Positions 2,178 through 39,184 of a DNA stretch of 39,336 bases are shown in pieces. The translations under genes were made by a program, and so were the position numbers. Numbering within the stretch: the stretch's first letter is position 1; each line of letters begins with the position of its first letter. Below the pieces are notes generated by a model. That model worked only from the letters and a program-made list of their open reading frames with translations, was not told the origin of the DNA and did no database searches. The stretch is from a virus. Taxonomy: Duplodnaviria > Caudoviricetes. The stretch is from IMG/VR virus record IMGVR_UViG_3300038393_000662, positions 1 through 39,336 of that record. The stretch is one strand, 5' to 3'.

Positions 2178-2887
2178 TGTTCCTCCTAAGCCCCTATCGC
2201 TTCGGCAACACCCCATCGGATCCCAACTTTTCCAATGTCGTCCTGTTGTGCCACATGGAAGGCGCGAACGGAGGGGCCACGTTCACCGACAGTTCTTCCA
2301 GCGCCAAGACCATCACGGTTCTAACGGGCACGACGAACAGCAACACGCAGGTCAAGTTTGGCTCAACATCCTGCTTCATAACCGGCTCCGACTCGGGCGG
2401 CCTGTCCCTCGCGTCCAGCGCGGACTTCGGCTTCGGTGCCGGTGACTTCACGATTGAGGCGTGGTGCTATGCGACCAACGTCACCTCGCGTCTCAATACC
2501 ATTTTCGACTGCCGCCTGAGTGGCGCGACGGGCGTTCAATTGTTCATCGGGGGCGGCGCATATACCGTTGCAGCAAGCTCCATAGGCTGCTCGAGCAATA
2601 CCGGCATCCTGGCAACGGGAACCGGCGTGTCTGCGAATACTTGGCTGCATTGCGCTCTCACCCGCTCCGGCACAACGCTCCGGGGCTTTGTGGGGGGAGC
2701 GCAGGCGTTCAGCGTTACCGACTCGCGGACCTATGCTTCCTCGGCTGCGGTCTACATCGGGCGAGACCCGAATGGGACGTCCCTGCAAGGCTTCGGCGGC
2801 TACTTGGACGACGTGCGCGTGACCAAAGGTGTCGCACGTTACACCGCCAATTTCACGCCGCCGACGGCTGCATTCCCTGATCACTGA
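2177..2887 (+). CDS. LamG/concanavalin-A-like lectin tail-tip protein
   Basis: TGATG coupling at 2175-2179; DPNFSNVVLLCHMEG, DFTIEAW, WLHCALTRSG, GYLDDVRVTKGVARYTANFTPP. Confidence 0.8.
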   Translation: MFLLSPYRFGNTPSDPNFSNVVLLCHMEGANGGATFTDSSSSAKTITVLTGTTNSNTQVKFGSTSCFITGSDSGGLSLASSADFGFGAGDFTIEAWCYATNVTSRLNTIFDCRLSGATGVQLFIGGGAYTVAASSIGCSSNTGILATGTGVSANTWLHCALTRSGTTLRGFVGGAQAFSVTDSRTYASSAAVYIGRDPNGTSLQGFGGYLDDVRVTKGVARYTANFTPPTAAFPDH

Positions 2888-3782
2888 TGCGGGGTGTGCG
2901 GAAGTAGCGCTCCACCGTGTAGTAGCTGATGGACGCCAGCGCGAGCGAGCCGGCCAACGTCAGGCCGAGGTTCGCCTGCCAGCCCCATGCCTCGGGCACC
3001 ATGAACGTCATGGGGTAGTGGAACAGGTAGACCCCGTACGAAATGCGCCCGACATAGACGAGCGCCGGCCGGGTGACGAAAGGCAAGGGCGTCAGGTTCG
3101 ACAACAGCAGCACGCAGGCCGTCGCCGCCTCGGCGAACGGGATGCCCGCCGGAATGCCTAACCCAAGCGCAAGCGTGGCTAGCCCGAGCAAGGCCAGCGG
3201 CAGCCAGGACGTCATAGGGAGGAACGCGAGCAGCGAACCGAACACCAGGCCCGACATGCGCGTATCGAAGCGGAAGCCATCGGCCGGCGCGATCAGGTGG
3301 GCGGACGCCCAGAGCGTCGTCGCGACATACAGGCCCAGCATCATCCACACGGGCCGGCGCGAGCGCATCACGACGGGCAGCAGGGCGGGCCAGAGCAGGT
3401 AGTAATGTTCTTCAACCGCGAGGCTCCACGTATGCGCCAGCGCGCCGGGCGTGCCACCAAAGAGCCAGCCGTAATCGGTGAGGTAGAGCAGCACCCGGCC
3501 CGCGCCCGCAGGCGTTGCCCAGCGGATAGCCAGAACCAGGCCGACGAGCACACACAGGGCCGGGTAGAGACGCCGCGCACGGCGCAGGTAGAACGCCCCG
3601 AGCCGGATGCCGCCCGACTCCTGCTCGCGCTTGAGAATCGAGGTGATGAGGTAGCCGGACAGGACAAAGAACACGTCCACGCCCAGCTTCCCGCCGCCGA
3701 GATACGGCACGTCGCAGTGATACGCGACCACGCCCAGCACCGCCAGCGCCCGTATGCCATCCAAGGCCGGGTTGTATTTCAT
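2853..3782 (-). CDS. Acyltransferase-3 family membrane O-acetyltransferase (Oac/OafA-like)
   Basis: LDGIRALAV..YH, GVDVFFVLSGYLIT, FYLRRARRLYP, HTWSLAVEEHYY, GRISYGVYLFH, SYYTVE; multiple TM segments. Confidence 0.92.
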   Translation of the reverse strand: MKYNPALDGIRALAVLGVVAYHCDVPYLGGGKLGVDVFFVLSGYLITSILKREQESGGIRLGAFYLRRARRLYPALCVLVGLVLAIRWATPAGAGRVLLYLTDYGWLFGGTPGALAHTWSLAVEEHYYLLWPALLPVVMRSRRPVWMMLGLYVATTLWASAHLIAPADGFRFDTRMSGLVFGSLLAFLPMTSWLPLALLGLATLALGLGIPAGIPFAEAATACVLLLSNLTPLPFVTRPALVYVGRISYGVYLFHYPMTFMVPEAWGWQANLGLTLAGSLALASISYYTVERYFRTPRISDQGMQPSAA

Positions 3783-4453: not shown

Positions 4454-5380
4454 TTAGGCCAGCTTCCGCACCGCATCGGCGAGGTGCGAGGGCAGCAGGT
4501 GGGCGTACCGCTTGGTGACGGCCGGGCTGCTGTGGCCTAGGAACTCGCCGATGGTGTGCAGGGGCACGCCCGCCTGCGCCAGCCACGACGCGCAGGTGTG
4601 GCGCAGATCGTGCCAACGGCAGTCGATCCCCGTCTTCTGGCGCGCGGTCGCCCACGCCTCGCGGATCTGACGATCCCCGATCTTCAATGGCAACGCTTCG
4701 GCGATGGCCTGCACCTTCGGGTGCAGCGGGACCATCTGAAGCGTTCGCGTTTTTCCGCTGCGGTCCAGCCGCAGAAACTCCCCTTGCACGTCATGCCGGG
4801 TCAGCCTGAGCAGGTGTCCACGCCGGATGCCCGTATACGCCGCCAGGCGCACGTATGCGGCCGCCGCAGGGTCAGGGCACGCCTTGGCTAGCGCCTCGAC
4901 CTCCACGAGCGTCAGGAAGCGTTCCCGTGGCGATTCTGGCAGCAGGGCAATCGCGGCCGGACGATCCAGCCAGCCCCACTCGCGCCATGCCGCCCGCGCG
5001 ATCTGGCGAAGGATGCGGCCCTTGTGGTTCACGGTGGCCGGGGCTTTGTCGATCTCGGCTTCCTTGATCTCAGACCACACGGTGCCGACCTCCGTCAGCT
5101 TGCGCCCGTGGATGTACGGGAGCAGGGCGCGGACGTGGTTTCGGGTTTGCCGCGCCGACCGCAGGCGGGGGACGTGTCCTGTCAGCCAGCGTTCCACGGC
5201 ATCGGCAATCAGTCGTTCTGGCTGCCGACCAGCCGCAGCGTCCCGGACCTTGGCGAGCCAAGCCCGTTCGAATGCTTTGGCGTCGGCGAACGTCCAGTGG
5301 CGAGAAGTCTTGCGATACGTTCGTCCGCCGTAGCAGACGGTGACTTGATAGCTTCCGTTATCTCGCTTGGCGACGGGCAT
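4454..5380 (-). CDS. int: Tyrosine integrase
   Basis: YTGIR, K(TR), HDLRH, LGHS..VT.RY catalytic motifs; probable start MPVAKR at 5380. Confidence 0.95.
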   Translation of the reverse strand: MPVAKRDNGSYQVTVCYGGRTYRKTSRHWTFADAKAFERAWLAKVRDAAAGRQPERLIADAVERWLTGHVPRLRSARQTRNHVRALLPYIHGRKLTEVGTVWSEIKEAEIDKAPATVNHKGRILRQIARAAWREWGWLDRPAAIALLPESPRERFLTLVEVEALAKACPDPAAAAYVRLAAYTGIRRGHLLRLTRHDVQGEFLRLDRSGKTRTLQMVPLHPKVQAIAEALPLKIGDRQIREAWATARQKTGIDCRWHDLRHTCASWLAQAGVPLHTIGEFLGHSSPAVTKRYAHLLPSHLADAVRKLA

Positions 5381-5571
5381 TGCTGGCGTACCTTGCGGCG
5401 CGCCCAAAAGGCGGCCAGGTCGGCGGGGTGGATGCGGTCGGACTTGGCGCTGGAGCCTACGCGCGTCACGGCGAGGTCGCCAGCGGCAATGGCCCGGCGC
5501 AGGGTCTTGGTCGAGCATTCACACCGCTCGGCAGCCTGCGCGACGGTCAAAAGGCGTTCTGCTGCGCTCAT
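5209..5571 (-). CDS. xis: Excisionase (MerR-like HTH)
   Basis: LLTVAQAAERCECSTKTLRRAIAAGDL..RIHPADL; directly upstream of int. Confidence 0.8.
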   Translation of the reverse strand: MSAAERLLTVAQAAERCECSTKTLRRAIAAGDLAVTRVGSSAKSDRIHPADLAAFWARRKVRQQCPSPSEITEAIKSPSATADERIARLLATGRSPTPKHSNGLGSPRSGTLRLVGSQND

Positions 5572-23704: not shown

Positions 23705-24135
23705 GCCGCAGCACGACCGCCTACGCGAGCGCGACCAACCGCGAGCGCGTACATGCGCTGGAACTGTTCGCCGGCGAGACGACGCCGGTCTCGGTCGACT
23801 TCACCGCGATCCTCGGCGCCACGCCGGCGCTGTCGAGCGCGACGTGGGAGATCGACAACCCGACGGTTGCGGTGATGTCCGATGCCGTGATCGACGGCAA
23901 CACCTCGCAGATCACGCTCGCCGCGCAATCGGCTGGCACCGCGACGCTGCGCTGCATCGGCGGCACGGACAGCGGCACCAAGTGCGTGCAGATGTTCGCG
24001 CTGCAAGTCGACGCGGCTCCGTACTTCGCCACGGACACCGCGGCCGGGCCGACCTCGCTCGAGGCCACGGCCGTAGTGGTCGGCGGTGGTGGTGGTGGGT
24101 TGGGTGGCGGCGCACTCGACGGGGGCGGCGCATGA
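23701..24135 (+). CDS. Fibre adaptor-like beta protein
   Basis: GE....VDF..L.....SATW pattern; precedes fibre gene. Confidence 0.5.
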
Positions 24136-25751
24136 CGGCCTTCTACCTCCGCAGCGACACGACGGCGGCTTGGGCGGCGGCCAATCCGATCCTTGCCGCG
24201 GGCGAGCCCGGCGTCGAGATCATTTCGACCTCGCCGGCGCGCTTCAAAATGAAGCTCGGCGACGGCGTCACGCATTGGAACGACCTGTCGTATGCGCAGG
24301 CGGGACTCGCGGGTGCCACCGGACCACAAGGCCCAGCCGGCCCGACCGGACCACAAGGCCCGACCGGACCCGCGGGTGCGGATGGTTCCGGCGTGTCGAT
24401 CGTCGGCTCCGTGGCGACCACTGGCGATCTGCCTGGGTCCGGTACGGCGGGGCAGGGCTACATCGTGCAGGCCGATGGGCACCTCTACATCTGGCCGGTA
24501 GGCGGAAGCGCTTGGCTCGACGTCGGCCAGATTCAAGGACCGCAAGGGCCCACGGGCGCAACAGGCCCTACCGGCCCAGCTGGCCCGGCCGGCGCGACTG
24601 GCGCCACAGGCGCAACGGGACCGGCCGGACCCACTGGCGCCACTGGCGCGACAGGCCCCGCCGGCGCAACCGGAGCTACGGGCGCCACCGGCCCCAAGGG
24701 CGACAAGGGTGACACCGGACCAGCGGGCTCGGGTGGCGACCCCACGTTCGACGGCACCTATGGCGCCGACCCCACGGGCGTGAGCAACTGCGACACCGCC
24801 TGGGCGAGTGCGATGTCAGCGGGCGTGCGCTTCCGGCTGCGCGCCGGCACGTACCGCTTCGCCAATGAAATCCCCTACAACGCCGAAGTCGAGATCGTCG
24901 GCGACGGCCCGAACAAGGTGTTCCTGCGCAGCTACACGACCACCGGCAACGGCATGGTCGTAACCGGCTCCTCAAGCCTCGGCTCGGCGAACCGCATTGT
25001 CGCGAGCGGCTTCACCCTTGAGTACAAAGGAACGGGCCAGGCAGCCGGCAAGGGCGGCGTCGTATTCAAGCGCAAGCCGTTCTGGCAGAACGTGGTCGTC
25101 AAAGGCTTTCGCGACTTCTGCGGTCGGCCCGATTCGATCGACGGCACAGTGGGCGGCGCGGTGTTCTTTCCCGAGCTGCGCAACTGCCGATTCGCGGAGA
25201 GCACCGCGGGCGATGGGTTCCAGCTGCGTTTCGGCGCGAACTGCTGGAACTTCAACAACTGCCAATTCGACAAGAACGCCAAGAAGGGCTTTCACCACTA
25301 CACGGACGGCGGCGCCACCTACGGGACCGTCATCAAGGGCGGTCAGGCCAGCTACAACAGCGAGCAGGGCTGGTACATCGAGAACGGCACCGACATTTCC
25401 ATCGATGGGATCTACGGCGAGTACAACTGCAGCCCGACGAACACGAACACGGATGGGTACACGAACACGGCGCTGTCCGCGACCGACCGCATGGTTGACT
25501 TCCACTTCGGAGATGGTGCCAACCGGGTAAAGGCCAACCTCGCAGCGGTCCTCGGCAACAACGACGCCCATGTGCGCGTCCCGAGCGCGACCAATGCCTA
25601 CAGCGCCAAGGTGGATGTCACGGCGGGCGGCAAGCGCTACACCCCGATCTGCGGTGCGCTGCGGACCTCGACCGCGACCACGCTCACGCAGCTCGTGGCT
25701 GACTTCAACGCGGCCATTACGGCCCTCAAGAATGGGAAGGTCGGCGGCTAA
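24132..25751 (+). CDS. Collagen-repeat fibre with hyaluronidase/Mtd-like N-terminus and pectate-lyase-like beta-helix
   Basis: [22 protein letters not shown]; two (GXY)n tracts; YGADPTG..D.AW..A..AGTYRF then beta-helix repeats. Confidence 0.85.
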
Positions 25752-31594: not shown

Positions 31595-32002
31595 ATGACC
31601 CAGGTTTCCAGCATCGTGCGCGATGCCCTGCTGCACTTGCGGGTGCAGGACGCGGCCGAAGCCGTCGACGCGCAGGCCATGCAGGACGCGATTCGCGCCC
31701 TCAACGGCATGATGCAGCGATGGGAGGCCGATGGCGTCTCGGTCGGGTGGACCGACGTGTCCGCGCCCGATGACGCCCTGTCTGCGCCCTCTGAGGCGGA
31801 GGAGGCCATTTCCTACAACCTCGCCGTGCGCCTGCGTGCGCGCTACGGCGTGGCGATTGACCCCGACGTGATCCAGATGGCGACGGACGGCCTGGCCGCC
31901 CTGCGCGCCGACGTCATCGCCAACACCTATTCCCGCATCAGCTACGCCGACCTGCCCATGGGCGAGGGCTGGTGTGGCGGCTACAACTTCAACAACGGCT
32001 GA
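31595..32002 (+). CDS. Head-tail adaptor (P22 gp4-like)
   Basis: IV.DAL..L.V..DA...LN.MM..W...G; YNLA.RL...YG; GGAG RBS. Confidence 0.85.
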   Translation: MTQVSSIVRDALLHLRVQDAAEAVDAQAMQDAIRALNGMMQRWEADGVSVGWTDVSAPDDALSAPSEAEEAISYNLAVRLRARYGVAIDPDVIQMATDGLAALRADVIANTYSRISYADLPMGEGWCGGYNFNNG

Positions 32003-32005
32003 CCG

Positions 32006-34165
32006 ATGACCGACCACGTCATCCAGGTTCGCTACACGAAGGACGCCGGCAACTGGGCGTCCTTCCGCGACCTCAACGCCGGCGCGACGGGTGCGTTCGG
32101 CAAGCAGCTGGCGGCGCGCCAGCTCGGCCAGGCGCTTTGGCGCGTGTGGGAGACGTGCGACACCTCACCGTTCCCCGCCGACCTCTACGGAGCCGCGATA
32201 CTTGTCAACGGGGCGTCGGATTGGCAGGACTTCCCGCTGCCGGATGGCAGTTACGACGACCAGACGCGCGAGTGGACGCAACAGGACGTCGTCAACTACC
32301 TGCCGCTGTTCGCTCAGCAGGGAGGCGCGCGCTCGAGGGCGCTGTACCGCACGGCGCCGGGGCTGGATGTGTTCGCCAACATCGGAAACGGCCCGCATCG
32401 CGGCGCGATCAGTGTCGAAGGGACGTTGTTCGTGGTGTCTGGCACCGCGCTCTATGAGGTGGCGAAGGACGGCACGGCGACCAGCCGCGGCACGATCCCC
32501 GGCACCGGCCGGGTGTGCATGGCCTACAACCAGATCACCAGCGGCAACCAGCTGGTCATCGGCAACGGATCGAGCGGCTACGTCTACAACACGGTGACGG
32601 GCACGTTCACGCAGATCACCGACGACGGCTTTGCCGGCTTCAAGTCCTGCGACTTCCTCAACCAGTACATCGTCGGCGTCGAGCCGCTGGGCCGGTTCTG
32701 GTATCACTCCGAGCTCGTCGATGCGCTGAGCTACAACACGCTGGACCGCTACGGCGCGGAAACCTCGCCCGACGCGATCATGGGGCTGATCGCCTCGCAC
32801 AACGAAGTGCTCGTGTTCGGCGCCCGCACGATCGAGCCGTGGGTCAACGAGCAGGAAAGCAACGCGGCGGCCACGGCCTTCCAATTGCAGCGCGGATCGG
32901 TGATTGAGCGCGGATGCCTCAACGGCAACACGATTCGCAGGCTCGACAACTCGGTGTTCTTCCTCGGCGACGACCGCATCGTGTACCGGCTCAACGGCTA
33001 TACGCCGGTGCCGATCAGCACGCAGCCGATGGCGGTCGCCTTCCGCGACCTCGACCCGACCAAGGCGTTCGCGTTCACCTTCGAGGACAACGGGCACGTC
33101 GTCTACTACCTCACCTGGGGCGACGGGCGGACGTGGGGCTATGACGTGGCGAGCCAGAAGTGGCACCGCCGCGAGTCCTTCGGCCTGAATCGCTGGCGCC
33201 TCAACACGCTGGTGAAGTGGGGCAACGAGTGGGTCGGCGGCGATTTCCAGAACGGCAAGCTCTACCGCATCGCCTGGGGCTATCCCTACGAGGGCTGCGA
33301 GATCATGCCGCGGCGGCTGCGCACGAGCGTGCTGCATGCCGACAGCAACCCGGTCACGGTCAACGGCTTCCGCATCGAGGCCGCCACCGGCCAGCCGATG
33401 TCGGTGCTCGGCGCGGCGTTGCCGCCGGCGATCAGCGGCGCGCTGCCGGATGCGACCGCCGGCGACGTCATCGACTATCAGTACACCGTCACGCCAGCCT
33501 ACCCGGGCCAAGCAGTCACGCTTTCCGTCAGTGGGGATTTCCCGCCTGGTCTCACCTTGGACGCAACCGGGCATGTTACCGGAACGCTGCCAAGTGGATC
33601 AGACGGGATCTACACCTTCTCGATTCGGCCATCGAGCGAATGCGCCGATGGCGCCGCGCTCAATGAGGTGGTGACGATTGCGCCGCTGCCGTCTGTCGAC
33701 TATGACGTAACGGGCATTCCCTACAAATTCATGTACGCAGCCGATGCGAACATCAATACCGACTACTCCTCGCCGAGCTACGACGATTCGGCATGGAGCA
33801 CGGGACAAGGTGGATTCGGTTTCGAAGGGACGACGGCCTTCGCGGATCAGGACATCAATACCGGCACGGACCGCGGGTATGGCGCGCGCATCTGGCTGCG
33901 TCAGCGCGTGGCGATGGCGGCCGGCCGCGATTGTCTGGTGACGGTCTACCGCGACGACGGCGCGAAGTTCTGGTGGAACGGCGTGAACTACGCCCTGAGC
34001 ACGACCACCGACTACTACCGCCTCACGGTCACGATTCCTGGCTCCGCGGTCACTGGCAACGACCTCGCCGCGCTGCGCGTTACCGATGGTAAGCCCGACC
34101 CCGGTGATTCGGGTTCGGTGGGCTCGGACGGCATCTACGCCTCGATGAAGTTCCAGTCGCTATGA
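32006..34165 (+). CDS. Tail hub/packaged-DNA stabilization protein (P22 gp10-like), apparently permuted, with Ig-like and sugar-binding-like extension
   Basis: NYLP..APGL, AETSPD.I, VFG..TIE.W, DNSVFFLG, TW.YD..QKWH.R; PPGLTLD.TG.VTG Ig motif. Confidence 0.85.
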   Translation: MTDHVIQVRYTKDAGNWASFRDLNAGATGAFGKQLAARQLGQALWRVWETCDTSPFPADLYGAAILVNGASDWQDFPLPDGSYDDQTREWTQQDVVNYLPLFAQQGGARSRALYRTAPGLDVFANIGNGPHRGAISVEGTLFVVSGTALYEVAKDGTATSRGTIPGTGRVCMAYNQITSGNQLVIGNGSSGYVYNTVTGTFTQITDDGFAGFKSCDFLNQYIVGVEPLGRFWYHSELVDALSYNTLDRYGAETSPDAIMGLIASHNEVLVFGARTIEPWVNEQESNAAATAFQLQRGSVIERGCLNGNTIRRLDNSVFFLGDDRIVYRLNGYTPVPISTQPMAVAFRDLDPTKAFAFTFEDNGHVVYYLTWGDGRTWGYDVASQKWHRRESFGLNRWRLNTLVKWGNEWVGGDFQNGKLYRIAWGYPYEGCEIMPRRLRTSVLHADSNPVTVNGFRIEAATGQPMSVLGAALPPAISGALPDATAGDVIDYQYTVTPAYPGQAVTLSVSGDFPPGLTLDATGHVTGTLPSGSDGIYTFSIRPSSECADGAALNEVVTIAPLPSVDYDVTGIPYKFMYAADANINTDYSSPSYDDSAWSTGQGGFGFEGTTAFADQDINTGTDRGYGARIWLRQRVAMAAGRDCLVTVYRDDGAKFWWNGVNYALSTTTDYYRLTVTIPGSAVTGNDLAALRVTDGKPDPGDSGSVGSDGIYASMKFQSL

Positions 34166-34698
34166 GCCCCATCCGCGTAATCGGTCGCCTCGACGTAAGC
34201 GCGGCAGTGAAGCAGCTCGATGCCAACCCGCAGGTGTGGAACCGGCACAGCCTGCGGCGTGAGGCGTATGTGCATCGGCAGGTCGACGACATTTGGGTGC
34301 GCTACAACGCGTGGGCCAACTTCACCGGCGACGCGGCGGCCTTCAACGGCCCGCACGAGTCGGTGTGGTATCCGGTCGTGACCGAGGTGCCGGCGCTGTG
34401 GTCGCTGGCGCGGCAGGCCAAGCGGATCGCAGGCGCGACGGAACTCGGCGGCGTGCTGGTGACGCGGATCCCGCCAGGCGGTCGTGTCGAGCCGCACATC
34501 GACCGCGGCTGGCACGCGGAAACGTACCGCAAGATCGGTGTGCAGATCAGCGGCCACGAACAGCAGGCGTTCTGTTTCGACGATGCGGAGCTGCGCCCGC
34601 TCACCGGCGACGTGTACGAGTTCCGCAACGACATCACGCATTGGGTGGTGAACGACTCCCCGGTGCCGCGCATCACCCTGATCGTCTGCTGCAAATGA
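34162..34698 (+). CDS. Asp/Asn beta-hydroxylase-like 2OG-Fe(II) oxygenase
   Basis: IPPGG.V.PHID (HxD), HWVVN (distal His), RITLI (2OG Arg). Confidence 0.85.
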   Translation: MSPIRVIGRLDVSAAVKQLDANPQVWNRHSLRREAYVHRQVDDIWVRYNAWANFTGDAAAFNGPHESVWYPVVTEVPALWSLARQAKRIAGATELGGVLVTRIPPGGRVEPHIDRGWHAETYRKIGVQISGHEQQAFCFDDAELRPLTGDVYEFRNDITHWVVNDSPVPRITLIVCCK

Positions 34699-35207
34699 AC
34701 GTAGACTTCTGCGTGCTGGGCCTGCCGCGGTCCGGCACGACATGGTGTGCCAACTGGTTGACCACGGACACGACGCTGTGCCTGCACGACCCGTTCCGGT
34801 TCCTGCCGGAGCAGTGGCCGCGCGACGGCCGACGCTTCGGGGTGAGCTGCACAGGCGGCTACCTGATGCCGAAGTGGCTGGACCGGCTCGACTGCCCGAT
34901 CGCCGTGATTGAGCGCGACCCGGCCGACTGCGACGCCTCGCTGGCGCGCATGGGGCTCGGGCAGGTAGGTGTGCTGGCGCCAGAGCTCGCCCGCGTCGAC
35001 GCTCGACGATGGCGGTTTGCTGACCTCTGGAACGAAGAAAAAGCCCGCGACCTGTGGGCTTTTTTATTGCCTGACGTGCGTTTCGACGCCGTGCGCTACC
35101 GCCTGCTGCGCGACATGCAGGTGCAACCCCACCCGAGAACGTGGACTCCCGACACTGACGTGTTGCGGGAGCTGCAAGCGCGCGGCTTGTTGCCGCAGGA
35201 GAACTGA
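34695..35207 (+). CDS. Sulfotransferase-like protein
   Basis: VLGLPRSGTTW (5'-PSB loop), LHDP, RDPADCDAS (3'-PB R-x-P-x-D-x3-S). Confidence 0.75.
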   Translation: MNVDFCVLGLPRSGTTWCANWLTTDTTLCLHDPFRFLPEQWPRDGRRFGVSCTGGYLMPKWLDRLDCPIAVIERDPADCDASLARMGLGQVGVLAPELARVDARRWRFADLWNEEKARDLWAFLLPDVRFDAVRYRLLRDMQVQPHPRTWTPDTDVLRELQARGLLPQEN

Positions 35208-35209
35208 AC

Positions 35210-35830
35210 ATGCCATGGGGCTATGCAGCGGTCGCCGTTGCCAGCATCTACAGCGCGAACAAGCAGTCCAAGGCTGGCGAGAAAGGCGCCCAAGGACAGG
35301 TGGCGGCGTCACAGTACGCCACCGACGAGCAGCGCCGCGAATACGACCAGTCGCGGCAGGACCAGCTGCCGTTCCTGCAGGCCGGACAGGATGCGCTCGG
35401 CCGTCAGGCCGCGTTCCTCAATGGGGACTGGTCCGGCTTCGAGAACTCGCCCGACTACAAATTCGCGCTGGATCAAGGGCTCAAGCTGTCCGACCGCAGC
35501 GCGGCCGCGCGCGGCTCGCTGTTCAGCGGCGGTCATTCCGCCGACCTGATGCAGCTCGGGCAGGGGCTCGCGCAGCAGAACGCGAACGACTACTGGAACA
35601 AGCTCGCCGGCCGCGCGGGGCAGGGGCAGGTCACGGCCTCCAACCTCGGCCAACTCGGCGCCAACATGGCGACCAACATCGGCAACAACGCGATGAACGG
35701 TGCCAACGCGCGCGCGTCGAGCTATGCGAACACCGCCAACGCCTGGGGCAACGCGACCAACCAGCTCGCTGGGCTGGTCGGCCAGTACTACGGAAACCGC
35801 GCCAACACCAACACGGGGCAGTGGTACTGA
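35210..35830 (+). CDS. DNA ejection protein (gp7-like)
   Basis: Ala/Gly/Gln/Asn-rich; P.LQAG..AL, SP.Y.F...QG, AAARG.L.SG. Confidence 0.8.
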   Translation: MPWGYAAVAVASIYSANKQSKAGEKGAQGQVAASQYATDEQRREYDQSRQDQLPFLQAGQDALGRQAAFLNGDWSGFENSPDYKFALDQGLKLSDRSAAARGSLFSGGHSADLMQLGQGLAQQNANDYWNKLAGRAGQGQVTASNLGQLGANMATNIGNNAMNGANARASSYANTANAWGNATNQLAGLVGQYYGNRANTNTGQWY

Positions 35831-35831
35831 C

Positions 35832-37289
35832 ATGGCCGACATCCTTCCCGTTTCGCAGATGATCCAGCAGCCGAACCTGTTGGGCGGTTTCCAGCAGGGG
35901 CTGCAGTTCGGCCAGGCGCAGCGTGACCGGCGCAACAACCAGCAAGCCGCGCAGCTGTACGCGCAGGCGATGCAGGCGCCCGTCGAGCAGCGGCCGGCGC
36001 TGCTCGCGCAGATCGCGCAGCTGACCGGCGTCGAAGGCGCCACGACCGCGCAGGCTGGACTCGGCCGGCAGGACAGCGCCGCGCACGACGACCTCGTGCA
36101 GTCCGCCAGCCAGTTCGCGGCCATCGCCGAGGCTGATCCCGCCACCGCCCAGCAGATGTACCCGGCGCTCGCGGCCAAGGCGCACGCCGTGGGCATTCCC
36201 GTGCCGACGACCTACGACCCGCGGTTCCTGCCGGCGATCCAGAAGCTCGCCACCATCGGCAGCCCGGGCGGCGCGGTGCAGTCGACCTACGTCGACGCGC
36301 AGGGCAACCGGGTCGCGATCATGCGCGACGGCTCGCACCAGGTGATCGGGCAGAACGCACCGAACATGCAGATCATCGACAACGGGCAGGGGTTCTACGG
36401 CGTCAACAAGTCGAATCTGGCCGCCACGCCTGTAACGTTGGGCGGCGCCCCACAACAGGCCGCGCCGACGCAGTTCACCGGCGTCGATGGCCGCCCCGTG
36501 CAGATCGACCCGAATCTGCCGCCGGCCGTGCAGGCGTCCATTCGCGCCAACGAGGGCGCCTACGCGCAGGCGCCGAACATGGCGACCGCACAGATCGGCC
36601 AGCAGCCACAGCAGTTGCGGAGCATGCCGAAGCCGGCCGACATCCGCGCCGAGCAGGCGCAGGCCATGCAGATCGCCGAGTTCAACGCCAAGCAGTCGCA
36701 CACGCTTTCGCCGGCCGAAGTGGCCGCGCGCGGCTATCGGCCCGGCACCATCGTGCAGGTCGACGGATTTGGCAACGAGTCGGTCAAGCAAGCGCCGGAA
36801 GGCGCACGCAACAGCATGTCCGACGTCGACCGCCGTGCCATCCTCGCGGCGAAACAGAAGGTGCCGCAGCTGCAGAACGCCATCCGCGGCCTCGATCGCA
36901 TCAACGACGCCCTCAAGGCGCTGCAAGGTGGCCTCGTCGATACGGGCCCGCTGGATCAGTTCGCGCAGCGGTACACGAAAGAAGGGCAAGAGCTAGAGGC
37001 GGCGGTCGGCGGCATCCAGAACAGCATCCTCGCACTCACCCGCGTGCCGGGCATCGGCTCACAGTCCGACCTCGAAGCACGTATCGCGATGCTGCAATAC
37101 CCATCGCTCGACAAGAACCCCGAAACGAACGCTCGCACGCTGCAGAACCTCAGATTGTTCATGCAGGACTTGGCGAATGCCTATCAGAACGTGCTATCGC
37201 AGCCTGACGCCGCGCCATCGACGACGCACGCGCCATCCGCCAGCGGTGCCAGCTACGACCCACTGGGCATCATGCAAGGAGGCCACTGA
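35832..37289 (+). CDS. DNA ejection protein (gp20-like by position)
   Basis: Gln/Ala-rich, Cys-free, second of three. Confidence 0.65.
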   Translation: MADILPVSQMIQQPNLLGGFQQGLQFGQAQRDRRNNQQAAQLYAQAMQAPVEQRPALLAQIAQLTGVEGATTAQAGLGRQDSAAHDDLVQSASQFAAIAEADPATAQQMYPALAAKAHAVGIPVPTTYDPRFLPAIQKLATIGSPGGAVQSTYVDAQGNRVAIMRDGSHQVIGQNAPNMQIIDNGQGFYGVNKSNLAATPVTLGGAPQQAAPTQFTGVDGRPVQIDPNLPPAVQASIRANEGAYAQAPNMATAQIGQQPQQLRSMPKPADIRAEQAQAMQIAEFNAKQSHTLSPAEVAARGYRPGTIVQVDGFGNESVKQAPEGARNSMSDVDRRAILAAKQKVPQLQNAIRGLDRINDALKALQGGLVDTGPLDQFAQRYTKEGQELEAAVGGIQNSILALTRVPGIGSQSDLEARIAMLQYPSLDKNPETNARTLQNLRLFMQDLANAYQNVLSQPDAAPSTTHAPSASGASYDPLGIMQGGH

Positions 37290-39184
37290 TGCCGACGCTC
37301 GCCGAGCTGAAAGCCTCGTCGCCCGCGTATGCGGCGATGGACGACATGCAGTTTGCGTCCAAGGTGTACCGCACGCACTACGCCGACAAGATGAGTTTCC
37401 CGGAGTTCGCGCAGCGGGTCGGGTTCGACCCGTACGGCGACGCACAGGGTCACGATCCGACTGAGGGCATGTCCAACGCCGACAAATTCTGGTCCGGCAT
37501 GGGCAAGGCGTTCACCGACACCGGCCACGGGCTAGTGCAACTCGGCGCGACGGGCTCGCGCATCGTTGCCGAGCACACGCCGGACATTCTCGGCGGCGCC
37601 CGCGGCGTGCAGTTCTATGGCGACATCGAACGCAAGCTGCAGGCGCAGGAGGCGGAGCGCCGCCAGCGCGACAAGCCGCTGATGAGCACCAAGGCCGGCA
37701 CGGCGGGCGAGGTGGCGGGCGTTCTGGCGCAGATCCTCGGCCCCGGCATCGCATTGCGTGGCACGGCGGCTGGTGCGGCGCTGCTGCCGCGGACCATCGC
37801 CGGCAACGTGGTGCAGGGCGTTGGCATGGGTGCCCTGCGGCCCGTCACGAACAATGGCGAGCGCAGCACCAACATGCTCGTCGGTGGCGGACTGGGCGTA
37901 TTCGGCTCGGCGGCTCCGAAGATCGTGGGCGGCGCCGCGCGCCCGGTGGTCAACTACCTGGGGCGCTTCGGCCAGAAGGGTGCACAGAAGCAGGCCGCAC
38001 GGATCATCGCCGACGAAGCGGCGAACCGTGCCAACCTACTCGCCGCCGCCCCGAGCAATGTCCCGGGCGTGCAGCGCACGCTCGCGGAGGAATCGCTGGA
38101 TCCCGGCATCGCGCGCCTGGAGCGCAACGCCCGCAGCACGGGGCAGGGCTTCGACGCGATCGACCGGCAGAACAACCTCGCCCGCGTGGATGCGCTGCGG
38201 GGGGTCGCCGGCACGCCTGAGGACATGGCAGCAGCCGAGGCCGAGCGGCACGCCACCTCCGAACCGTTCCGCCGCGCGGCAATGCGTGCGACCGGCGTCG
38301 ATACCGAAACGCTCCGCAACCAACTCGCCCGTGCACAGCAGCTGTTCGACGGCCGTCCGGCCGTGCAGCAGACACTCGACTATGTCGCCAACCAGCTCTA
38401 CCGCGATGCCACGCCGGCCGAACTCAAGGCGGGGTTCCCGGCGCGCATTCCGCGCGACGAGGTCGCCGGCCTGTCGAACGTGCGCGACACACTCAAAGAC
38501 CTGATGAACGGCAAGCTGTCCGGCGATGCGCCGGCAGCGGAGGCCGCCACGCGTCAGATCATGATGGTCCGCAACGGCCTCGACCGCGCGATCGGCAAAA
38601 CGGCGCCCGAGTTCAAGGGCTACCTACAGGCGTACCGTGAAGGCTCGCAGCCGATCAACCGGATGCAGCTCGGCCAGCATCTCCTCGACAAGGGGTCGGG
38701 CGCGGTGCTGGATCCGGTGACGGGCGCGCCGACACTCGCGCCGGCGGCGTTCAGCCGGCAGGCCAACAACCTAGACGCCGCGGCCGCAGCGGCCACAGGT
38801 TTCCGCAAGGCCAAGGCGGCCGACATCCTGCAGCCGCAGGACACGGCGATCATCAAAGCGATTCAGGACGACTTGGAGCGCAAGGCGTTCGCCGGCACAG
38901 CGGGCAGTGGCGGCAATTCGCACACGTTCGAACGGCAGGCGCTCGAGAACAAGCTCGGCGCGCAAGCAGCCAGCGGCGTGCCCGTGCTCGGCAAGTTCGC
39001 CAGCGTGCTCAACCAGATCAACGACCGCCGCGTGCAAGCCCAGGTGGTTTACCTGCTGCAGAACCCGAGCCGCGCCCGGGCCGTGCTGTCCTCACTCCCG
39101 GCCGATGAGCGGCGAGTCGTCCAGGACGCGCTGTCCCGGGCTGGCGGCCTCGCCGGCGCCATGACGCCCGCGCTCGCGGAATAG
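37289..39184 (+). CDS. DNA ejection protein (gp16-like by position)
   Basis: Large Ala/Gly-rich helical protein with hydrophobic GxxxG segments. Confidence 0.65.
   Translation: MPTLAELKASSPAYAAMDDMQFASKVYRTHYADKMSFPEFAQRVGFDPYGDAQGHDPTEGMSNADKFWSGMGKAFTDTGHGLVQLGATGSRIVAEHTPDILGGARGVQFYGDIERKLQAQEAERRQRDKPLMSTKAGTAGEVAGVLAQILGPGIALRGTAAGAALLPRTIAGNVVQGVGMGALRPVTNNGERSTNMLVGGGLGVFGSAAPKIVGGAARPVVNYLGRFGQKGAQKQAARIIADEAANRANLLAAAPSNVPGVQRTLAEESLDPGIARLERNARSTGQGFDAIDRQNNLARVDALRGVAGTPEDMAAAEAERHATSEPFRRAAMRATGVDTETLRNQLARAQQLFDGRPAVQQTLDYVANQLYRDATPAELKAGFPARIPRDEVAGLSNVRDTLKDLMNGKLSGDAPAAEAATRQIMMVRNGLDRAIGKTAPEFKGYLQAYREGSQPINRMQLGQHLLDKGSGAVLDPVTGAPTLAPAAFSRQANNLDAAAAAATGFRKAKAADILQPQDTAIIKAIQDDLERKAFAGTAGSGGNSHTFERQALENKLGAQAASGVPVLGKFASVLNQINDRRVQAQVVYLLQNPSRARAVLSSLPADERRVVQDALSRAGGLAGAMTPALAE

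Follow-up and report, generated by a model that had tools for sequence, protein, structure and literature searches.

A predicted hydroxylase and a miniature sulfotransferase-fold protein encoded before the first ejection gene of a short-tailed phage may act on the N-terminal proline of the ejection protein

The phage genome IMGVR_UViG_3300038393_000662 (39,336 bases, complete with direct terminal repeats; its whole length is referred to below as the window) carries two small enzyme genes in the slot between a gp10-like tail hub gene and the gene of a gp7-like ejection protein. One gene encodes a predicted Fe(II)/2-oxoglutarate oxygenase, designated HYD, and the other a putative sulfotransferase, designated ST. 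The neighbouring ejection protein begins with proline wherever HYD is present, and the two enzymes are therefore likely to modify the front end of that protein. It appears moderately probable that HYD and ST act on the N-terminus of the gp7-like protein by hydroxylation of Pro2, followed by an optional sulfation that uses host 3'-phosphoadenosine 5'-phosphosulfate (PAPS). The observed gene pair is real and is likely to be a new variation on a predicted hydroxylate-then-sulfate chemistry, with a named substrate residue. An earlier note on this DNA, made from its letters alone, had described two ATGA-coupled enzyme genes between the gp10 hub and the first ejection gene, and both open reading frames (ORFs), the overlaps and all of the named motifs are present; the P22 record likewise has genes 26 and 14 in this slot, as that note had stated. 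The features concerned are the following.

32006..34165, + strand: gp10-like head closure/tail hub gene, the stop of which overlaps the HYD start
34162..34698, + strand: HYD, predicted 178-residue Fe(II)/2-oxoglutarate oxygenase, AspH/proline-hydroxylase-like (H112, D114, H160; R170)
34695..35207, + strand: ST, 170-residue minimal sulfotransferase-fold protein (PRSGTTW; R74-x7-S82; H31-D32)
35210..35830, + strand: gp7-like first ejection protein, the proposed substrate (N-terminus MPWG)
35213..35215, + strand: Pro2 codon of the gp7-like protein, which co-varies with HYD
35210..35260, + strand: uncharged 17-residue N-terminal segment of the gp7-like protein, at the position of the 20 residues cleaved from P22 gp7, with no sequence likeness to them

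The association between HYD and Pro2 was assessed with start codons called by an automatic rule blind to residues 2-4, which returned calls for 282 of the 299 loci with a gp7 match and skipped 17. Among the called loci, 175 were non-redundant, and the removal of two with neither gp10 nor HYD left 96 loci with HYD and 77 without. By the automatic rule, Pro2 was found in 90/96 HYD loci vs 16/77 loci without HYD. The six misses were wrong start calls, four of them due to in-frame TAG codons, and all six proteins begin with MP; with these corrected by hand, Pro2 is present in 96/96 non-redundant HYD loci. Eleven of the 14 skipped HYD loci have PW or PF at the front of the protein, some behind a non-ATG start, while the remaining three duplicate locus L051. 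HYD-anchored searches supplied most of the HYD rows; the set free of this bias consists of the gp10-anchored loci of the window's clade, in which Pro2 occurs in 8/8 loci with HYD vs 4/31 without (p 8e-6). The second, freshwater clade contains one HYD locus only and is uninformative.

The association also holds when shared descent is taken into account. On a gp10 tree (FastTree, 139 rows), HYD changes state 22 times, and 16 independent pairs gave a mean of 14.6 in the same direction and 0 in the opposite direction (p 6e-5), while a gp7 tree of 156 rows, from which the first 25 residues were left out, gave 10 independent pairs, 9.1 in the same direction and 0 opposite (p 0.004). All four proline codons are used for Pro2 in the HYD loci (29/28/22/17), the positions neighbouring Pro2 are 27-82% conserved, and the median identity of the HYD proteins is 49%. 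The next gene has no link between HYD and Pro2 (11/63 vs 13/63). In locus L014, which carries an ST of the window's subfamily and no HYD, the ejection protein starts with MVAA.

The start of the ejection protein can also be set against the other occupants of the slot, which in gp10-anchored loci are GNATs, gp14-like proteins, long or short cupins, a DUF6445 oxygenase and a DDxxD protein. HYD is followed by MP and then W, F, L, I, A, V or Y; long cupins are followed by MT, MS or MA (Pro2 0/30), and DUF6445 together with a GNAT by MA or MG (Pro2 0/11). P22 gp14 (DUF2824), in the gene order 10-26-14-7, matches the gp14-like GNAT family (E 1.9e-6, two-protein search); it shares its position with HYD and ST but differs from them in fold and chemistry. 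No paper on modification of gp7 by P22 gp14 was found.

HYD contains the motifs PHID (111-114), HWVVN (160-164) and RITL (170-173), in which H112, D114 and R170 do not vary among 112 HYD sequences and H160 is kept in at least 90% of them; residue roles were given by motif and not from a ligand-bound model. The protein matches PF05118 with E 4e-4 and 20.6 bits, under the curated cut-off of 22.6, and PF05118 is carried by most HYD relatives among the matches listed. Its structure model (predicted local distance difference test, pLDDT, 95.7) has a double-stranded beta-helix fold, and its top Foldseek matches are the L-proline cis-4-hydroxylase structures 4P7W (E 1.6e-9, template modelling score 0.72) and 4P7X, with a nucleoside-antibiotic hydroxylase third, proline 3-hydroxylase 1E5R fourth, AlkB-type enzymes 22nd or lower and AspH 24th. 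Single-sequence PDB searches with HYD and with ST gave nothing useful. Fold, conserved HxD..H and Arg residues and the rank of proline hydroxylases agree with the assignment of HYD to the 2-oxoglutarate-Fe(II) oxygenases in the earlier note. The nearest folds are thus those of the free L-proline cis-4- and cis-3-hydroxylases (4P7W, 1E5R; placed in PF05118 with AspH), which have the HxD..H triad and C-terminal Arg in common with HYD, but are 260-286 residues long, as against 178, and share only 16-17% identity with it.

ST contains GLPRSGTTW at 9-17 (5'-phosphosulfate loop) and RDPADCDAS at 74-82 (3'-phosphate motif). Residues P11, R12, S13, W17 and R74 are the same in all of 119 ST sequences, and at least 90% of them keep S82, while in 139 distant relatives R12 is conserved in 97%, S13 in 95%, W17 in 97%, R74 in 99% and S82 in 92%. 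As with HYD, the Pfam match is sub-threshold (PF13469, E 2e-3, 18.9 bits, cut-off 27). The structure model (pLDDT 94.2) gave weak Foldseek matches (E about 1e-3) with sulfotransferases on top, and a VIA search with it returned sulfotransferases in all of the top nine rows (Z 10.9-9.5), TPST1 being first (Z 10.9, root-mean-square deviation 3.2, 144 aligned). In a PDB profile search, sulfotransferases accounted for 26/28 matches and kinases for 0, both motifs that bind 3'-phosphoadenosine 5'-phosphate (PAP) were aligned, and R74-x7-S82 was aligned to RNPKDTAVS of SULT7A1. The best structural match is therefore to TPST1/2 and Sulfotransfer_3 (PF13469), with which ST has both PAP-binding motifs in common, although it is about 100 residues shorter than the matched chains. 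The catalytic base is a His in cytosolic SULTs and a Glu in TPST; in the 139 ST relatives, H31 is conserved in 99% and D/E32 in 97%. The family consists of small, stand-alone proteins, with 1,744 clusters at 50% identity and a median length of 172 among the best 148 new matches.

The sulfotransferase assignment made in the earlier note is supported by the retention of both PAPS motifs and by the top rank of sulfotransferases, and the modelling of ST as a kinase, which that note had named as a refuting outcome, was not seen. The labels 'hydrolase' (PHROG 10855) and 'nucleotide triphosphate hydrolase' (GenBank) were rejected as functions of ST because the Walker-A lysine is missing, position 15 being T or S in 98% of the 139 relatives. 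An adenosine 5'-phosphosulfate (APS) kinase was not found in this phage, nor in any of 36 ST-bearing records (0/36; ATP sulfurylase was not searched for), whereas 5/5 bacterial genomes that carry HYD prophages have it; the host would accordingly be the source of PAPS.

The chemistry proposed for the pair starts from an established rule: methionine aminopeptidase removes Met before Pro and leaves a free secondary amine, as in free L-proline. Removal of Met from the gp7-like protein would accordingly expose an N-terminal proline resembling free proline, which HYD would hydroxylate, after which ST, in a further and optional step, would transfer sulfate to it from host PAPS. That HYD acts on the N-terminal proline is probable on the present evidence, while sulfation of the new hydroxyl, rather than of the amine or a nearby Ser or Tyr, is plausible but somewhat doubtful. 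The resulting cap might control whether host peptidases trim the uncharged segment, whether it is packaged into the head or whether it enters the membrane, and in sister phages GNATs and cupins would do the same job. This purpose is the weakest link in the argument. As regards the destination of the protein, P22 gp7 is described as forming an extracellular channel into the outer membrane in the available text of a preprint and a review (bioRxiv 10.64898/2026.09.03.749273; PMC8954989).

Three further features of the window are needed to weigh this reading against others.

35832..37289, + strand: second ejection protein, identified solely by its gp20 position, with no family match
37289..39184, + strand: third ejection protein, identified solely by its gp16 position; it starts with MPT and is a possible second substrate
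24132..25751, + strand: collagen-repeat fibre, a rival substrate that is not favoured

A number of observations weigh against modification of Pro2 by HYD and ST. The 16 Pro2 loci without HYD comprise seven with a short cupin, four with a gp14-like GNAT, three with the DDxxD protein, one in which ST is the only enzyme, and Xylella phage Xfas53, where MPW occurs without any slot enzyme. The third ejection protein also has some excess of Pro2 (16/50 vs 1/22), and residue 3 is W or F in 85/96 HYD loci, offering a possible alternative site. Since the enzyme cassette and the start codon adjoin each other, the two could be exchanged as one unit. As regards HYD, the match to proline hydroxylases does not carry their activity over, because the characterized free-proline hydroxylases refuse amides, esters and N-acyl substrates, according to the available part of PMC6958525; activity on a peptide would be a changed specificity, new with respect to these enzymes. 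As regards ST, Thr53 stands where cytosolic sulfotransferases have their catalytic His, and kinases follow in the VIA search at Z 9.2 and 9.0, sulfotransferase rows 5-9 lying within 1 Z of the first kinase. The pair is also not obligate, given that among 99 non-redundant HYD loci with enough flank 54 have no ST, and among 55 ST loci 38 lack HYD. No ejection-like gene adjoins the pair in the ST-HYD locus L437, and ST relatives occur in early or replication regions of Pseudomonas siphophages. Finally, host OpdA cuts the first 20 residues off P22 gp7, and the phage can do almost entirely without them, as reported in the portion of PMC8402733 that was available.

The neighbourhood survey bears most directly on whether the two enzymes form a pathway. 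ST adjoins HYD in 45/99 HYD loci, in both orders (15 HYD-ST and 30 ST-HYD), and HYD is present in 17/55 ST loci; a gp7-family match lies downstream in 69/99 HYD loci, and in 29 of the other 30 a protein starting with MP is found among the next genes (one was resolved by hand). The HYD-ST pair is therefore old and recurrent, yet optional, and of the hydroxylate-then-sulfate pair proposed in the earlier note the co-occurrence elsewhere stands, while an obligate, fixed pathway is not supported. One alternative, which we regard as possible but rather unlikely, is that HYD hydroxylates the ejection N-terminus and ST works independently, on a free amine, on Ser, Thr or Tyr, on another virion protein or on a small molecule. 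It would account for the unpaired ST loci and for the occurrence of ST alone before ejection proteins starting with MA, MG or MW, among siphophage tail-tip genes and in early regions; moreover, no ST-specific hydroxyl site was found in residues 2-22 of 58 HYD loci. The frequent adjacency in both orders argues against independence, as does the window's own ST subfamily (support 99), in which HYD lies upstream in 13/14 members, and ST-HYD pairs turn up across a large part of the ST tree.

The ST relatives in L039, L041 and L057, which were viewed, lie antisense among siphophage tail-tip genes, and L055 groups with L039 in the ST tree, while L156-L159 represent early regions of the cultured Pseudomonas phages PaMx28, NP1 and PaMx11, where the proteins are annotated as hydrolases. 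Such phages provide cultured material for ST assays.

The P22 comparison leads to a second alternative, which shares its chemistry with hydroxylation and sulfation of Pro2 and differs in the final place of the mark. P22 gp7 matches the profile of the gp7 family with E 2e-12. The 20 residues cleaved from it sit where the uncharged segment lies here, so that the mark may be carried by a leader not retained in the virion. The uncharged segment would in that case be cleaved as in P22, and the modified peptide would act outside the virion, or the mark would time the cleavage. Deletion of the 20 residues leaves about 60% of the burst in P22, again from the available portion of PMC8402733, which fits a dispensable leader; the P22 leader is, however, charged and does not resemble the uncharged segments in sequence. 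Overall, a released leader is considered rather unlikely. The earlier proposal of a virion-protein target can thus be narrowed to Pro2 of the gp7-like ejection protein, whereas a lasting mark on the virion is uncertain given the trimming of P22 gp7.

A related chemistry has been predicted before. In the parts of the article that were available, Iyer et al. 2010 (PMC2938197) predicted bacterial operons in which a beta-hydroxylase and a sulfotransferase, the same two enzyme classes side by side, hydroxylate and then sulfate a co-encoded collagen-like or tail-collar protein. Those operons are bacterial and often include a PAPS synthetase, whereas the present pair is optional, lies in a podophage late operon without a phage APS kinase, and is accompanied by evidence that points to the N-terminal Pro of the ejection protein. 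A collagen fibre or tail-collar-type protein as target of HYD and ST has this published prediction and the fibre encoded in the window in its favour. Nevertheless, an in-operon substrate of that type was not encountered: collagen occurs in 5/25 HYD records (4/21 at >=90% completeness) and in 2/25 records without HYD, and the fibre gene of the window lies 8 kb away, whereas the linkage to the ejection gene is near constant (the tail-collar domain was not searched for separately). The collagen fibre, also named in the earlier note, is accordingly a poor general candidate, and this alternative is highly improbable.

Modification of DNA, nucleotides or a host surface molecule would place HYD among AlkB/TET-like or LpxO-like enzymes and make ST a kinase-like P-loop enzyme. 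The Z scores of kinases against the ST model (9.0-9.2) and the third rank of the nucleoside-antibiotic hydroxylase for HYD are compatible with it, and some cultured relatives with the 'nucleotide triphosphate hydrolase' label lie near ribonucleotide reductase or exonuclease genes. On the other hand, ST lacks the Walker-A Lys and keeps both PAPS motifs, no kinase is among its profile matches, and the tracking of Pro2 with HYD is left unexplained, which makes such targets very unlikely.

The variety of slot enzymes invites a broader and speculative view, for which our confidence is low, that the podophage slot is a swappable tailoring system resembling that of RiPPs (peptides made on the ribosome and modified after translation). 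Hydroxylase, ST, cupin, GNAT, DUF6445 oxygenase and prenyltransferase-like enzymes would each cap a matched N-terminus, with a hydroxyproline O-sulfate in the present case, and their diversity would reflect an arms race with host peptidases or sensors. No report of N-terminal hydroxyproline O-sulfate as a protein modification was found. Similarly, no paper was found that describes an enzyme modifying the N-terminus of a phage ejection protein, or HYD-ST pairs in phages, in a search that left out most subscription papers, and the supplement of PMC2938197 may list phage cases. In the available text of a roseophage paper (PMC11288001), GNATs and an aspartyl hydroxylase are counted among the auxiliary metabolic genes and are not connected with ejection proteins; that of PMC9728967 contains nothing on this slot.

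Genes that have long lacked an explanation, P22 gene 14 among them, occupy the slot between the tail hub and the first ejection protein. If the slot enzymes indeed modify the adjoining N-terminus, a large set of unannotated phage genes would gain a function and a named substrate residue, post-translational tailoring would be added to the DNA-ejection machine, and the 2010 prediction of bacterial hydroxylate-then-sulfate chemistry would be put to the test. A 178-residue N-terminal prolyl hydroxylase and a 170-residue sulfotransferase might also be usable as tools. The Pro2 hypothesis is within reach of a short peptide and two small proteins.

In the window, the late operon has a P22-like order (terminase, portal, coat, gp4, gp10 hub, then ejection genes). 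The hub gene matches PHROG 578 (head closure, E 8.6e-106) and the gp7-like product PHROG 598 (DNA ejection, E 2.4e-41). The gp10, HYD and ST genes are linked in series by ATGA overlaps, at 34162 (gp10 with HYD) and 34695 (HYD with ST), and the gp7-like gene has its ATG at 35210; a promoter and terminator scan near the pair found nothing above shuffles. Both genes are under purifying selection: in comparisons with five close relatives, the ratio of non-synonymous to synonymous substitution rates ranges over 0.11-0.17 in HYD and 0.03-0.18 in ST. The closest named HYD relatives, at 54-60% identity, come from Rhodanobacter, Noviluteimonas, Frateuria and Dyella genomes and hint at a similar host.

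Several minor observations were made on the genes around the slot. The N-terminus of the gp10 gene (window 31972-32220) contains a segment of ~70 residues that matches PHROG 19101 and is a separate small gene 3' of gp10 in Xfas53 and many relatives (L199:6414-6632); the gp10 protein of the window also has a C-terminal Ig-like region and a further extension. Within the slot, a 150-residue protein with DDxxD and no Pfam match (L218:6567-7034, L256, L273, L031:6504-6959, L032), which we take from its motif to be prenyltransferase-like, precedes ejection proteins starting with MPDP or comes after ST. A protein of 55-75 residues (FDxYFAS...MQxHPGAGTKEH), also without a Pfam match, is often found 3' of HYD or fused to it (L101:4653-4820 and many HYD loci). 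In the cultured Pseudomonas phage PfAn1 (L162), the slot holds a different PF05118 hydroxylase and a GNAT, and the ejection protein starts with MVAA.

The gp7 genes themselves have unusual features in some loci. In-frame TAG codons interrupt otherwise continuous gp7 genes in L089, L090, L092, L384, L051, L149 and L399, the seven proteins looking normal when TAG is read as Gln, and L014 has in-frame stops of the same pattern; one group of podophages may thus use amber recoding or read-through. Other gp7 genes have no ATG start: ACG with a good Shine-Dalgarno sequence is found in L123:4573 and L137:6946, GTG in L016 and possibly ATA in L106, while L098 has no clear start; the genes of L123, L137, L016 and L098 all lie behind an inserted HNH gene. 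Elsewhere in the window, a 309-residue membrane acyltransferase-like ORF (2853-3782, - strand), presumably O-antigen acetylase-like by its motifs, adjoins an integrase-like ORF (4454-5518), an arrangement consistent with a temperate phage capable of serotype conversion.

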